A DNA stretch of 64,000 nucleotides, taken from the NCBI GenBank assembly GCA_963753325.1, contig CAVWBS010000001.1:2667945-2731944 (forward strand), read 5' to 3'. The notes under the pieces were generated by a model. That model did no database searches. It saw only the letters and a program-made list of their open reading frames with translations, and was not told where the DNA came from. Shown here piece by piece: positions 55,706 to 59,597 of this stretch (the first letter of the stretch is position 1; the number at the start of each line of letters is the position of its first letter). The position numbers were made by a program, and so were the translations under genes. Source of the DNA: an uncultured delta proteobacterium (GTDB lineage: Bacteria; Desulfobacterota; Binatia; UTPRO1).

Positions 55706-56404
55706 GTGCGTGACGGTGCCGGCGTCGCGATCGTCGGCGTCGGCGCGCTCGGCTGCGCCGCGGCGGAGGCGCTGGCGCGCGCCCGTATCGGTCGCTTGAT
55801 CCTGCTCGACGGCGACGTCGTCGAGCGCTCGAATCTGCACCGGCAATTGCTACATCGCGACGCCGACTGCGGCCGCCCGAAGGTCGATTCCGCCGCCGAT
55901 CGGTTGCGGGCGCTCGCCCCCGGAACGCCGATCGAGGGCCGCGGCGTGCGCGTCACCGCGGCGAACGCCGAGACCCTCCTCGCCGACGCGACGTGCATCG
56001 TGGACGCGACCGACGGCTTCGAGAGCAAGTTCCTGCTGAACGACACGGCGGTCGCCCTCGGGACGCCGCTCGTCCACGCCGGGATCGTGCGCTTCCTCGG
56101 CCAGCTCATGACCATCCTGCCCGGCCGGACCGCCTGCTACCGCTGCCTCTTCGGCGTGCCGCCCGAGCCCGGCGACGTGCCGTCGTGCCAGGAGGCCGGG
56201 GTGCTCGGCTCGCTCGCCGGCACGATCGGCCTCTTGCAAGCGGCCGAGGTCCTTCGCTACCTCACCGGGAGCGGCCCGCTCCTGACCGATCGGTTGCTCA
56301 CGTACGACGCGCTCGCGAATCGCTTCCGACACGTCCGCCTGCGGCGCAACCCATCGTGCGCCACGTGCGGACCGACGCTCGCGAGAGCCGGCCGCAACAG
56401 CTAG
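55706..56404 (+). CDS. ThiF/MoeB/HesA-type E1-like adenylyltransferase (nucleotide-binding competent, lacks the usual N-terminal RYSRQ segment, no rhodanese domain)
   Basis: The GTG at 55706 lies 1 nt after the bamD stop. VAIVGVGALGCAAAEALARARIGRLILLDGDVVERSNLHRQ..GRPKVDSAA..DATDGFESKFLLND..CYRC..SCATCG. Confidence 0.8.
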   Translation: MRDGAGVAIVGVGALGCAAAEALARARIGRLILLDGDVVERSNLHRQLLHRDADCGRPKVDSAADRLRALAPGTPIEGRGVRVTAANAETLLADATCIVDATDGFESKFLLNDTAVALGTPLVHAGIVRFLGQLMTILPGRTACYRCLFGVPPEPGDVPSCQEAGVLGSLAGTIGLLQAAEVLRYLTGSGPLLTDRLLTYDALANRFRHVRLRRNPSCATCGPTLARAGRNS

Positions 56405-56430
56405 AAGACCCGAAGAGAGGAGACCCACGC

Positions 56431-56712
56431 ATGGCCATCCAGGTTCGCATCCCCACCCCGCTCCGCAAGCTCACCGGCGGCGCCGAGTCCGTCAGCGGCA
56501 GCGGCGCGACCGTCGCCGCCCTGGTCCAGGATCTCGAGACGCGGCATCCGGGCCTGAAGGAGCGCATCTGCGACGACTCCGGCAAGGTGCGCCGCTTCGT
56601 CAACGTCTACGTGAACGGCGACGACATCCGCTTCCTCGACAATCTCGAGACGCCGGTGAAGGACGGCGACGAGCTCTCGATCGTTCCCGCGATCGCCGGC
56701 GGGACGCGCTGA
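56431..56712 (+). CDS. cysO: CysO-like MoaD/ThiS-family sulfur-carrier protein ending ..AIAGG-TR
   Basis: 93-codon ORF after the SD AGAGAGGAG: MAIQVRIPTPLRKLTGGAESVSGSGATVAALVQDLETRHPGLKERICDDSGKVRRFVNVYVNGDDIRFLDNLETPVKDGDELSIVPAIAGGTR. It closely resembles the M. tuberculosis CysO sequence as I remember it. Confidence 0.75.
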   Translation: MAIQVRIPTPLRKLTGGAESVSGSGATVAALVQDLETRHPGLKERICDDSGKVRRFVNVYVNGDDIRFLDNLETPVKDGDELSIVPAIAGGTR

Positions 56713-56741
56713 GCGCGGCATCGCCGTCTTCCGCCCGCCCG

Positions 56742-57656
56742 ATGGAAGGCCCGAGCGTCCTCGACCTCATCGGCAACACGCCGCTCCTGCGCATCCGCGG
56801 GCTCGCCCGCGATCTGCCCGAGAGCGTCCGCGTCTTCGCCAAGCTCGAGGGCTTCAATCCCGGCGGCTCGGTCAAGGATCGCCCCGCGCTCAGCATGCTG
56901 CGGGCGGGTCTCACGAGCGGCGCGCTCCGCCGGGGGAAGACGATCCTCGACTCGACCTCGGGGAACACCGGCATCGCGCTGGCCATGTGCGGCGCCGTGC
57001 TCGGCTATCCCGTCGAGCTGGTCATGCCCGAAAACGTGAGCGCGGAGCGCAAGAAGATCATCGCCGCCTACGGCGCGAAGGTGATCTTCTCGAGCCCGCT
57101 CGAGGGCTCCGACGGCGCCATCCGCCTCTGCCGCGAGGTGCTGGCGCGCGATCCGGAAAAGTATTTCAAGCCCGATCAGTACTTCAACCCGGCGAACCCC
57201 GAGGCACACTACAAGACCACCGGCCCGGAGATCTGGCAGCAGACGCAGGGCACCGTGACGCACTTCGTGACGGGCCTCGGCACCGGCGGCACGATCATGG
57301 GGACCGGACGGTACCTGAAAGAGCGCAACCCGCGCGTCCGCGTGATCGGCGTCGAGCCCGATGACGCCTTCCACGGGCTCGAGGGTCTGAAGCACATGGC
57401 GAGCTCGATCGTTCCCGGCATCTACCACGAGGAAGAGCTCGACGGAAAAATCCCGGCCCCGACCGAGGACGCCTACAACATGGTGTATCGCATCGGTGCC
57501 GTCGAAGGCCTGGTGGTCGGGCAGTCCTCGGGCGCCAACCTCTACGGCGCGTTGCAGGTGGCGCGCACGCTCGAGCGCGGCACCGTCGTGACCGTCTTCT
57601 GCGATTTCGGCGACCGCTACCTCAGCACCAATCTCTGGATCGGCTGGCAGGGGTAG
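56742..57656 (+). CDS. cysM: Cysteine synthase (CysM/CysK family, PLP-dependent)
   Basis: Intact 304-aa ORF: IGNTPLLRI..KLEGFNPGGSVKDRPA..STSGNTGIALA..TGLGTGGTIMG..GQSSGA. Confidence 0.9.
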   Translation: MEGPSVLDLIGNTPLLRIRGLARDLPESVRVFAKLEGFNPGGSVKDRPALSMLRAGLTSGALRRGKTILDSTSGNTGIALAMCGAVLGYPVELVMPENVSAERKKIIAAYGAKVIFSSPLEGSDGAIRLCREVLARDPEKYFKPDQYFNPANPEAHYKTTGPEIWQQTQGTVTHFVTGLGTGGTIMGTGRYLKERNPRVRVIGVEPDDAFHGLEGLKHMASSIVPGIYHEEELDGKIPAPTEDAYNMVYRIGAVEGLVVGQSSGANLYGALQVARTLERGTVVTVFCDFGDRYLSTNLWIGWQG

Positions 57657-57668
57657 CGCGAGAGCGTC

Positions 57669-58256
57669 GTGCGGCTCGATGACGCGCAGATCGAGCGGTA
57701 CAGCCGACAGCTGATCCTCGCCGAGATCGGGCCGAAGGGTCAGGCCACGCTCGGCGCCGCGCACGTGGCGATCGGCGCCGAGGGTCCGGCGGCGGAGCGC
57801 GTCGCCGCCTACCTCGCCGCGGCCGGCGTCGGCCACCTGACGCTGCCGGCGGCGCTGCACCCGCTGATCGATCCGGCGCAACCCGACGTGAGCCTGGCGA
57901 CGTGGCCGCCCGCTCCCGACGCGGCGGTCGACGCGGCCCTGGTCGCCCCGGGTGAGCCGCTGGCGGCGACCCATACGTTCTGGATCGACGGCGGCCGCGC
58001 CAGCGAGAGCCCCCCCTGCCCCGCGTGCGCCGTGGCGGCGCTCGGCGTCGCGGCCCCCGTCGACCCGCTGCTCGGACCGGTCCGCGACGCCGTCCTCGGC
58101 ACCGTCGTCGCGACCGAGATCGTGAAGGCCCTCCTCGGGGTCGGCACCGGCATGCGCGGTCGGGTGCTGGCGTACGACCCGGCGTCCGCCACCTTCACCA
58201 GCACGGCGGTCGGGGCGCGCCCCTCGTGCGTCTGCGCGCATCGGTCTCCCCCATGA
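57669..58256 (+). CDS. Degenerate ThiF/MoeB-like protein (keeps the N-terminal RYSRQ segment and Cys motifs, lacks the GxGxxG nucleotide loop)
   Basis: 195-codon ORF: QIERYSRQLILAEIGPKGQATL.. The usual GxGGLG loop is replaced by VAIGAEGPAAERVAAYLAAAGVGHLTL, and there is no D.D.V..SNL.RQ motif. It keeps PPCPAC and PSCVC. Confidence 0.6.
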   Translation: MRLDDAQIERYSRQLILAEIGPKGQATLGAAHVAIGAEGPAAERVAAYLAAAGVGHLTLPAALHPLIDPAQPDVSLATWPPAPDAAVDAALVAPGEPLAATHTFWIDGGRASESPPCPACAVAALGVAAPVDPLLGPVRDAVLGTVVATEIVKALLGVGTGMRGRVLAYDPASATFTSTAVGARPSCVCAHRSPP

Positions 58257-58343
58257 GCGCCCGAGCCTGGCGCAATCCGGCCAGATCTGATTAGGTACCC
58301 GTTCCGCCCGATCCCACGCAGCGCTCCAAGGAGGTCCGGTTCC

Positions 58344-59597
58344 ATGACGTTAGGCTGCTTCCCGAGGCTCACGTGCCCCACTCGCCGGGCACATCGTATC
58401 CGGCTCGGCTGCGCCGCGCGCCGGCCGCGGAGTCCGCTCGTGAGCGGCGCGACGATCCTGCCGCACGGCGGGACCCTGGTGAACCGCTGGGCGACGGACA
58501 AGGAGCGCGCCGGCTGGATGGCGGAGATCAAGACGCTGAAGCGCATCCAGCTGACGCGGCGCCAGATCTCGGACCTCGAGATGATCGGCGTCGGCGCGTT
58601 CAGCCCGCTCGAGGGCTTCATGGGCGAGGCGGACTACCGCGCCACGCGCGAGCGCATGCGCCTCGCGAACGGGCTGCCGTGGACGATCCCCGTCACGCTC
58701 GCCGTCACCAAGGACGAGGAGCGCGATCTCCACGCCGGTGACGACATCGTCCTGCTGGAGGACGAGCGGCCGCTCGGCATCCTGCACCTCGCCGAGAAAT
58801 TCACGTACGACAAGGAGCGCGAGGCGGCCGAGGTCTACGGCACCACCGAGGCGGCCCACCCGGGCGTCAAGGTCGTCTACGACCAGGGCGACGTGTACCT
58901 CGGCGGCAAGATCACGCTTCTCGATCGGCCGAAGGAAATCCCGTTCGCCGATCACCGCCTCGATCCCCTCGAGACGCGGGCGCTCTTCATCGAGCGCGGC
59001 TGGAAGCGCATCGTCGCCTTCCAGACGCGCAACCCCGTCCATCGCGCACACGAGTACATCCAGAAGTGCGCGCTCGAGATCGTCGACGGCCTGCTCCTCC
59101 ACCCGTTGGTCGGCGAGACGAAGGGCGACGACATTCCGGCCGACGTGCGCATGGAGTGCTATCGGGTCCTGCTCGACAAGTACTACCCGAAGGACCGCAC
59201 CGTCCTCTCGGTCCTGCCGGCCAACATGCGCTACGCCGGGCCGCGCGAGGCGATCTTCCACGCCATCATCCGCAAGAACTACGGCTGCACGCACTTCATC
59301 GTCGGCCGTGATCACGCCGGCGTGGGCTCGTACTACGGCACCTACGATGCGCACTACATCTTCGACAACTTCACCGCCGACGAGATGGCGATCACCCCGC
59401 TCTTCTTCGATCACACCTTCTACTGCAAGGTGTGCGACAGCATGGCCTCGGCGAAGACGTGTCCGCATCCCTCCAGCGAGCACGTCACGCTCTCCGGTAC
59501 CAAGGTGCGGGAGAAGCTCGCCGCGGGCGAGCGTCCGCCGAAGGAGTTCAGCCGGCCCGAGGTCGCCGACGTGTTGATCGGATCGATGCGGAAGTAG
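58344..59597 (+). CDS. sat: Sulfate adenylyltransferase (ATP sulfurylase)
   Basis: Intact ORF: ..[70 protein letters not shown]. The ATG at 58344 lies 9 nt after AAGGAGG and adds a 32-aa Arg/Cys-rich extension. The GTG at 58440 is an alternative start. Confidence 0.9.

Follow-up and report, generated by a model that had tools for sequence, protein, structure and literature searches.

Complementary losses in two E1-like paralogues of a CysO/CysM-type gene cluster suggest a heterodimeric sulfur-carrier E1 in Candidatus Binatia

The 64-kb window analyzed here (the whole 64,000-nucleotide stretch of contig CAVWBS010000001.1, with a G+C content of 70%), which comes from a soil bacterium of the Binatia, contains a gene cluster for cysteine synthesis with a small sulfur-carrier protein, in which two genes encode relatives of the ThiF/MoeB family of E1-like adenylating enzymes, named below E1a and E1b. 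Genes were called by reading the sequence and its open reading frames (ORFs) and with a gene model based on codon usage, for which the window served as the training set, while families were assigned using Pfam and NCBIfam together with matches to solved structures. The cluster is encoded on the plus strand. Its first gene is bamD (54709..55704), for an outer-membrane assembly lipoprotein (Pfam YfiO, E = 3e-45; TIGR03302, 216 bits), which is followed after only 1 nt by E1a (55706..56404), a gene with a GTG start that encodes a catalytically complete ThiF/MoeB-type adenylation subunit without the N-terminal arm. After 26 nt comes the gene of a 93-amino-acid CysO-type carrier of the ThiS/MoaD kind, which ends in AIAGG-TR (56431..56712), after another 29 nt cysM (56742..57656), which encodes a cysteine synthase of the B type dependent on pyridoxal 5′-phosphate (PLP; Pfam PALP, E = 7e-75; TIGR01138, 389 bits with a cut-off of 394), and after 12 nt E1b (57669..58256), which encodes a non-catalytic ThiF/MoeB paralogue of 195 amino acids. 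The last gene is sat (58440..59597), for a sulfate adenylyltransferase of 385 amino acids (Pfam PUA_2 and ATP-sulfurylase; NF003166, 580 bits), preceded by a leader with a Shine–Dalgarno sequence and a short upstream ORF (58328..58439, plus strand), which was recognized by its conservation upstream of sat in relatives. The distance from the end of E1b to sat is 87 nt if counted to the ATG at 58344, or 183 nt if counted to the GTG at 58440. The one-strand order E1a–cysO-like–cysM–E1b–sat is the same as in the first-pass annotation, which had been made from the sequence alone, with bamD now added upstream. In a scan for promoters and terminators, neither a sigma-70 promoter nor a meaningful terminator was detected inside the cluster. 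The nearest relatives of the window are metagenome-assembled genomes labeled Candidatus Binatia, with the older labels "Deltaproteobacteria bacterium" and "Polyangiaceae bacterium UTPRO1"; the class Binatia is included in the phylum Candidatus Binatota.

Both E1 proteins were aligned to Escherichia coli MoeB, and the residues of the ATP site and of the arginine finger were mapped. E1a covered positions 22-237 of the 238 positions of the Pfam ThiF profile (PF00899) with a score of 225.5 bits (cut-off 28.1), and it aligned to MoeB residues 33-248, the match to the MoeB structure 1JW9 having an E value of 2e-42. At the corresponding MoeB positions E1a has the GVGALG P-loop, SNLHRQ with Arg73, PKV with Lys86, and DATD with Asp130, and the ATP loop, Arg73, Lys86, and Asp130 are invariant among its relatives. 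Both CxxC pairs of the zinc site, CYRC and CATC, are present, as is a cysteine in the crossover loop (PSCQEAG). The equivalent cysteine of ThiF takes part in sulfur transfer. What is missing from E1a is the N-terminal arm: profile positions 1-21 have no counterpart, the RYxRQ motif is nowhere present in the upstream stop-to-stop frame, and RYxRQ before the P-loop was found in none of 120 E1a homologues. This is in agreement with the first description of E1a as a protein with an intact nucleotide loop and the CYRC and CATC motifs, which lacks the N-terminal RYSRQ segment. The ratio of nonsynonymous to synonymous substitution rates (dN/dS) for E1a was 0.13-0.22 in seven pairs of relatives. Neither E1a nor E1b carries any domain beyond ThiF in Pfam and NCBIfam.

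The losses in E1b are complementary to those in E1a. Only positions 1-49 of the ThiF profile were matched by E1b, with 36.3 bits against the same cut-off of 28.1. The arm of E1b spans residues 4-25 (57678-57743) and contains the sequence DDxQIERYSRQ, with the codon of Arg13 at 57705-57707. The profile of the E1b family aligned to MoeB residues 3-248 and placed ERYSRQ over the LRYNRQ of MoeB, so that Arg13 corresponds to MoeB Arg14, while the two cysteine motifs, CPAC and CVC, aligned as CxxC and CxC to the MoeB zinc ligands. E1b also retains a reduced Rossmann-like core, a C-terminal β-hairpin, and a helix with the sequence ATExxK. On the other hand, neither the motif search nor the MoeB alignment found GxGxxG at the P-loop position, SNLxRQ, or the catalytic Lys or Asp, and the nucleotide-binding half has lost about 55 residues in comparison with MoeB. 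Hence, E1b keeps two cysteine pairs and has lost GxGxxG and SNLxRQ, as had been noted before, and the losses previously inferred for both proteins were upheld by the alignments. Existing annotation labels both genes "ThiF/MoeB family adenylyltransferase," which for E1b is wrong as a statement of activity.

E1b has about 100 close homologues, which are about 200 amino acids long and 42%–74% identical, and its conservation was analyzed in these. The RYSRQ motif is present in 94 of these 100 proteins and SNLxRQ in none. The invariant residues include D5, E9, R10, Y11, R13, Q14, C117, C120, and C187, and they cluster in the arm (the first six of these), in PPCxxC, in the helix with ATExxK, and at the last cysteine. 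The arm (residues 3-26) is the most conserved segment of the protein, with a mean frequency of the top residue of 0.79 versus 0.45-0.66 elsewhere, and it is conserved in both of the Binatia clades described below. The dN/dS values for E1b in the same seven pairs of relatives were 0.23-0.52, which indicates faster evolution than that of E1a; for comparison, CysM had 0.08-0.14, the carrier 0.04-0.09, and BamD 0.11-0.35. The AlphaFold2 model of E1b had a predicted local distance difference test (pLDDT) score of 92.3 and a predicted template modeling (pTM) score of 0.86, with pLDDT of only 62-68 for residues 1-20, as expected of a segment that docks on a partner. In a Foldseek search with this model the best matches were ThiF and MoeB, with template modeling scores of 0.60-0.66 on the query. 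An identical E1b is also present on an independent assembly contig (Logan). Thus, E1b is a maintained, folded, non-catalytic paralogue.

In a scan of one genome per species, true E1b genes were confined to loci of the Binatia type. A few E1b loci have other taxon labels; they contain the same bamD-linked cluster and are therefore probably mislabeled Binatia bins. The order bamD–E1a...cysO–cysM–E1b is kept in every Binatia locus with enough flanking sequence, which is about 30 loci from both clades, and the complementary pattern of E1a and E1b was observed in every Binatia locus examined with the exception of two transitional ones, L087 and L090. An exhaustive profile search of 1.84 billion cluster representatives (clusters at 50% identity) indicated a large family and gave a similar picture, because the arm was present and NLxRQ absent in 114 of the 125 best E1b-like representatives of 185-300 amino acids, and the named members among the E1b-like representatives were Binatia. 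Hence, the paired E1 genes, noticed at first in the single cluster, are conserved in the neighborhoods of CysO homologues across the class Binatia.

The Binatia loci fall into two clades. In clade A, to which the window belongs, E1b has about 195-220 amino acids, the carrier continues after GG with a tail of 2-7 non-conserved residues, and the cluster has no extra genes, while sat is often located downstream. In clade B, E1b has 225-245 amino acids and is about 30% identical to that of clade A, the carrier ends with GG, and there are two extra genes in the cluster, a ThrC-like gene after E1a and a small NIL-domain gene located between cysM and E1b; often radical SAM, Na/sulfate symporter, and Usp genes follow, and precede sat. 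The ThrC-like gene of clade B has an N-terminal zinc ribbon and adjoins the carrier gene, as in the clusters of L033 (region 5107-7974), L087, L088, and L089, and it is probably MetM, a thiocarboxylate-dependent homocysteine synthase.

The two transitional loci show forms of the E1 genes that are less degenerate. In L087 (GCA_026004195.1, 3393-7774) both E1 genes are intact: E1a has SRYERQ and all catalytic motifs, and E1b has the arm together with GAGAVG, SNLHRQ, and DSSD, while the carrier ends in GG-V. In L090 (2090-5060) the arm of E1a reads RYAAH, and so the finger arginine is lost, while E1b keeps the P-loop and has lost SNLxRQ. The loci can be arranged in a series from L087 with both genes intact, through the intermediate L090, to clade B with an armless E1a and a dead E1b, and to clade A, in which E1b has shrunk further. 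The intact state in L087 and the intermediate one in L090 indicate that the losses were complementary and stepwise. In a neighbor-joining tree, calculated without bootstraps, all Binatia E1a proteins formed one clade, the degenerate E1b proteins formed a separate clade with long branches, and the intact E1b proteins of L087 and L091 were on a branch neighboring the latter. The E1 proteins of Nitrospirales grouped specifically with neither E1a nor E1b in this tree.

The carrier matched the Pfam ThiS profile (PF02597) with E = 7e-20, and the best matches to solved structures included M. tuberculosis CysO (3DWG_C, E = 3e-25) and 4N6E_B (E = 2e-26). The ThiS profile ends at GG, which corresponds to residues 90-91 and is followed by the Thr-Arg tail (56704-56709), and so the encoded C-terminal Gly-Gly is not free. 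The same GG-TR tail is found in the independent assembly L007. The tails in clade A are diverse, and include TR, AR, ER, TA, TTA, SEV, RLA, CGRA, TGAPI, SGARI, AAARA, SSRPRA, SSARPSV, and SDVRTRR. Residues after GG are also found in CysO homologues elsewhere: those of Omnitrophota end in GG-SE, those of Planctomycetia in GG-AE, and those of Nitrospirales in GG-GHE or GG-SHD. Therefore, the tail pointed out in the first-pass annotation is real, but it is less unusual than was implied there. The best match of the cysM product among solved structures was E. coli CysM (3.5e-72), followed by M. tuberculosis CysM (1.5e-62), which makes it about equally close to both by sequence. In this cluster Candidatus Binatia have their own form of the protein-thiocarboxylate (CysO/CysM) route to cysteine, a route that in M. 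tuberculosis consists of CysO, CysM, Mec, and MoeZR (PMC3227635).

A gene for an Rce1-like CPBP membrane protease (53967..54620, plus strand; Pfam PF02517, E = 4e-14) is located upstream of bamD. This gene lies between queT and bamD in 16 loci of clade A (L003, L005, L007-L022), the clade in which the carrier has a tail after GG, and it is absent from all of the about 10 loci of clade B, in which CysO ends with GG. An exception is L020/L001, which has the tail and no CPBP gene nearby. This pattern gives a weak hint that the adjacent CPBP protease might trim the tail of the carrier; it is only a weak lead, because the protease gene and the tail occur together as the result of one evolutionary event and because of the exception in L020.

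A hydrolase of the Mec type was searched for with a hidden Markov model (HMM) built from eight Mec-like JAMM proteins, at E ≤ 1, in the whole window and in 35 Binatia loci, 496 kb in total. There was not a single match in these sequences, and a motif scan agreed with this result, while the same HMM recovered three JAMM genes in control loci. This confirms, over a wider sample, the earlier remark that no JAMM/Mec-like protease is encoded near the cluster. Mec-like JAMM genes are located beside the Nitrospirales cysO loci examined and several of those in Omnitrophota, although not beside all non-Binatia loci checked, as none was found in the Planctomycetia locus. What is unusual, then, is that no Binatia locus examined has a Mec-like JAMM gene nearby. 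No rhodanese domain (PF00581) was found among the Pfam-annotated neighbors of eight loci, by a crude motif scan, or when a few unidentified ORFs were compared with Pfam, searches that together do not amount to a profile scan of the full window. The absence of rhodanese from either E1 had been listed as a distinctive feature of this cluster; the absence itself stands, but it is less unusual than it appeared, because E1 enzymes without rhodanese are ordinary, and E. coli MoeB uses IscS and YnjE (PMC3227635).

The arm and the active site are located on different polypeptides and have decayed in a complementary manner, and for this reason a heterodimer is the most economical reading of the two genes. 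Judging from the sequences, it is rather probable that E1a and E1b form a MoeB-like heterodimer with one composite active site, in which the arm would act in trans. The carrier-activating E1 would then be built from two paralogous genes. E1a would be the adenylating subunit, which provides the ATP loop, Arg73, Lys86, Asp130, the zinc site, and the crossover-loop cysteine, while E1b, a catalytically dead and shrunken paralogue, would supply the arm. In such a dimer the arm of E1b would reach into the single ATP site of E1a, where Arg13, the equivalent of MoeB Arg14, would act as the arginine finger. This proposal is consistent with data on related enzymes, because Arg14 of MoeB and Arg11 of ThiF are arginine fingers that complete the ATP site of the other subunit, and Tcd1 supplies such a finger to Tcd2 (PMC13139853). 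Hence, the action in trans of the N-terminal arginine of MoeB, which had been cited when the heterodimer was first suggested, is supported by the literature. Similarly, in the bacterial BilD protein an inactive adenylation domain supplies Arg9 to the active domain (PMC10557695).

The further steps would follow the scheme known from M. tuberculosis (PMC3227635), from which the removal of the tail, the sulfur donor, and the later reactions are inferred here. The Thr-Arg tail would first be removed from CysO, and E1a would then adenylate the exposed GG. The adenylate could be turned into the CysO thiocarboxylate (CysO-COSH) either by sulfide from sulfate assimilation or by a persulfide handed to the crossover cysteine of E1a. 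CysM would add CysO-COSH to the aminoacrylate bound to PLP, and the resulting CysO-Cys would be hydrolyzed by a hydrolase encoded elsewhere, which would release cysteine.

Several observations weigh against the heterodimer. In MoeB and ThiF the arginine fingers are dispensable, and TcdA has none (PMC13139853), and therefore an E1a homodimer might be active alone. For the same reason the word "obligate," which was used when the active/inactive pair was first proposed, is doubtful, while the complementarity itself has gained from the conservation of the pair, the arm, the evidence of selection, and the intermediates. Additionally, E1b is translationally coupled to cysM and not to E1a, with a 12-nt gap in the window and an overlap in L003, and in clade B it follows the NIL-domain gene. 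The retained C-terminal hairpin and ATExxK helix of E1b, which are also conserved in MoeB, would fit carrier binding as well. Finally, neither a Mec-type hydrolase nor a sulfur donor was found near the cluster, and so the pathway as read there is incomplete.

The best surviving alternative takes up most of these points. It states that a homodimer of E1a is sufficient and can do without a finger, while E1b is a non-catalytic protein with another function, such as a scaffold or chaperone, which holds CysO for CysM (and for MetM in clade B), or else a regulator of the pathway. Besides the dispensable fingers of MoeB and ThiF and the example of TcdA (PMC13139853), this explanation agrees with the coupling of E1b to cysM or the NIL-domain gene rather than to E1a, and with the retention in E1b of the two elements that align to the C-terminal region of MoeB. 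However, it leaves unexplained why the arm, which is the very element that E1a is missing, is the most conserved part of E1b, and why the arm of E1a and the active site of E1b decayed in step. A scaffold for the carrier also has no need of an invariant ERYSRQ. Hence, we consider this explanation unlikely, though it is the one to be taken most seriously among the alternatives.

The possibility that E1b is a decaying duplicate without function is highly improbable. The loss of every catalytic motif, the shrinkage from about 257 to about 195 amino acids, and the evolution faster than that of E1a could be expected from such decay. On the other hand, more than 100 E1b orthologues have an intact reading frame and the invariant residues, the protein has a confidently predicted fold, and its position in the cluster is conserved throughout the class. 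The dN/dS values of E1b are similar to those of bamD, from which it follows that E1b is not a pseudogene, and this explanation was rejected on the basis of dN/dS and conservation. Decay of E1b in relatives had also been named in the first-pass annotation as part of an outcome that would speak against a heterodimer; what was observed instead was purifying selection, together with invariant residues and a conserved position. The least credible explanation, that each of the two E1 proteins serves its own carrier (CysO, for instance, and a ThiS or MoaD whose gene lies outside the cluster), could apply to the two intact E1 genes in the Nitrospirales cysO clusters and in L087, but it was rejected for the window and most Binatia, where E1b is devoid of all catalytic residues (the P-loop, Arg73, Lys86, and Asp130) and could not adenylate by the known mechanism.

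The heterodimer of E1a and E1b can also be considered in a stronger form, as an obligate two-gene E1 for a sulfur carrier that arose by complementary degeneration of two complete paralogues, with each stage of this process surviving in living lineages, and that would work in a CysO cycle without a Mec JAMM gene beside the cluster. In our judgment the chances for and against this stronger form are about even.

When compared with the CysO–CysM–Mec–MoeZR system of M. tuberculosis, the Binatia cluster has in common with it a close CysO homologue, an adjacent CysM-type PLP enzyme, and an E1-like activator. It differs in that an active and an inactive paralogue share the role of the activator, with no rhodanese domain on either, that there is no Mec JAMM gene nearby, that the carrier of the window has two residues after GG, and that the CysM of the window is at least as similar to the E. 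coli CysM. The cluster also resembles the MetO–MetM–Mec–MoeZ system of Streptomyces, which serves homocysteine synthesis, because in Binatia of clade B the ThrC-like gene adjoins the carrier gene, as described for MetM. The maturation of MetO by Mec, which has already been described in Streptomyces, is a precedent for the trimming of a tail after GG. Unlike in Streptomyces, the cluster of the window, as a member of clade A, has no ThrC-like/MetM gene and no Mec nearby. More distant cysO clusters are found in Nitrospirales (cysO-cysM loci L024, L059, L064, L078, L081-L083, and L086) and, for the most part, Omnitrophota (L035, L043, L060, and L071). As in Binatia, cysM, the CysO homologue, and E1 genes are located together there, and the carriers have tails after GG; in contrast to Binatia, the E1 genes are intact, two in Nitrospirales and one in Omnitrophota.

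With regard to the E1 itself, both Binatia proteins have the fold of E. coli MoeB (of MoeB–MoaD) and ThiF (of ThiF–ThiS), and the catalytic residues and zinc site of E1a, as well as the RYxRQ arm with its finger, are those of this family. However, MoeB and ThiF form symmetric homodimers, and every chain contains an arm as well as an active site, while here the two are located on different polypeptides. The combination of a dead module that carries the arginine with a live module is similar to NAE1–UBA3, SAE1–SAE2, the domains of Uba1, BilD, and Tcd1–Tcd2, a likeness that is seen at the level of sequence only. The Binatia pair is different from these asymmetric E1s in that it is bacterial, is encoded by two genes, and serves a sulfur carrier, and in that its inactive subunit is far smaller (195 amino acids). 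Moreover, E1a and E1b contain neither a catalytic-cysteine domain nor an insertion domain, and there is no E2 gene in the cluster; the pair would be an E1 for a sulfur carrier and not for conjugation.

Symmetric homodimers similar to MoeB and ThiF are regarded as the ancestors of the E1 enzymes of the ubiquitin family, while the origin of the asymmetric eukaryotic E1s has been inferred only from end states. If the stronger form of the proposal is true, the Binatia pair would be an independent, natural bacterial model of how the asymmetric eukaryotic E1s, such as NAE1–UBA3 and SAE1–SAE2, arose. Within a single bacterial class, every step from a pair of intact paralogues to an active/inactive pair with complementary losses seems to have been preserved, and the surviving intermediates make this evolutionary route accessible to experimental testing. 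With this heterodimer, a heteromeric E1 for a sulfur carrier would be known from bacteria for the first time. We found in the literature no description of such an E1 in bacteria, nor of CysO in Binatia. According to a preprint of 2023 (PMC10557695), the E1-like proteins previously known from bacteria, which were ThiF, MoeB, and Cap2, are all homodimers, with BilD, described in that preprint, as the exception. Additionally, the cluster shows how Binatia, which are represented here mostly by metagenome-assembled genomes, probably make cysteine, and it leads one to ask what takes the place of a Mec encoded nearby.

Upstream of the cluster, at 50741-54016 on the minus strand, there are genes of an energy-coupling factor (ECF)-type transporter, with a T component similar to CbiQ and an ABC ATPase that is duplicated, and queT. 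The order queT–...–bamD–E1a is kept across Binatia, and bamD adjoins E1a in every Binatia locus, which joins a gene of outer-membrane assembly to a cytoplasmic sulfur-carrier operon. Downstream of sat are amtB-glnB (59838-61549, plus strand, from the codon-usage gene model) and a histidine kinase gene.

Two other genes of the window appear broken. The carB gene (10281-13499, minus strand) has two compensating frameshifts about 150 codons apart, between which the correct CarB frame is a different one, and recG (7095-8480) also appears interrupted. These breaks are most likely indel errors of the assembly, and hence single-base details of reading frames elsewhere in the window need caution. Because of the frameshifts in carB, an assembly error was also considered as the source of the E1a truncation and of the carrier tail, and it was rejected, as independent assemblies agree with the window and the E1b on an independent contig is identical.

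The start of sat needs a separate comment. The AAGGAGG Shine–Dalgarno sequence (58328-58334) and the ATG at 58344, which had been reported to begin an Arg/Cys-rich N-terminal extension of 32 amino acids, are both present, and this ATG is in frame with sat. However, the extension belongs to a leader ORF and not to the Sat protein. The conserved N terminus of Sat starts at the GTG at 58440, which is an ATG in L013, with GGAG 8-9 nt upstream of the start in all relatives. The codon-usage model also selects 58440, and the NF003166 match begins at residue 37 of the long sat ORF. In L007, L008, L009, and L020 the Shine–Dalgarno sequence and the ATG are likewise found before sat as conserved elements, but in another frame; the upstream ORF of the relatives has 11-32 codons and ends with a TGA that overlaps the GTG of sat (GTGA). 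Only in the window is the upstream ORF in frame with sat, which could possibly result from a one-base assembly error, because the same assembly has the compensating frameshifts in carB. When 55400-59900 was scanned permissively against Rfam, a snoRNA match due to chance was the only result, with none to the sat leader, and so no known riboswitch explains the leader. The conserved leader (58290-58440) consists of a CCTGGCG...GATCTGATTAGGT block, followed by the strong Shine–Dalgarno sequence and the ATG of the short upstream ORF, and it may couple or regulate the translation of sat.

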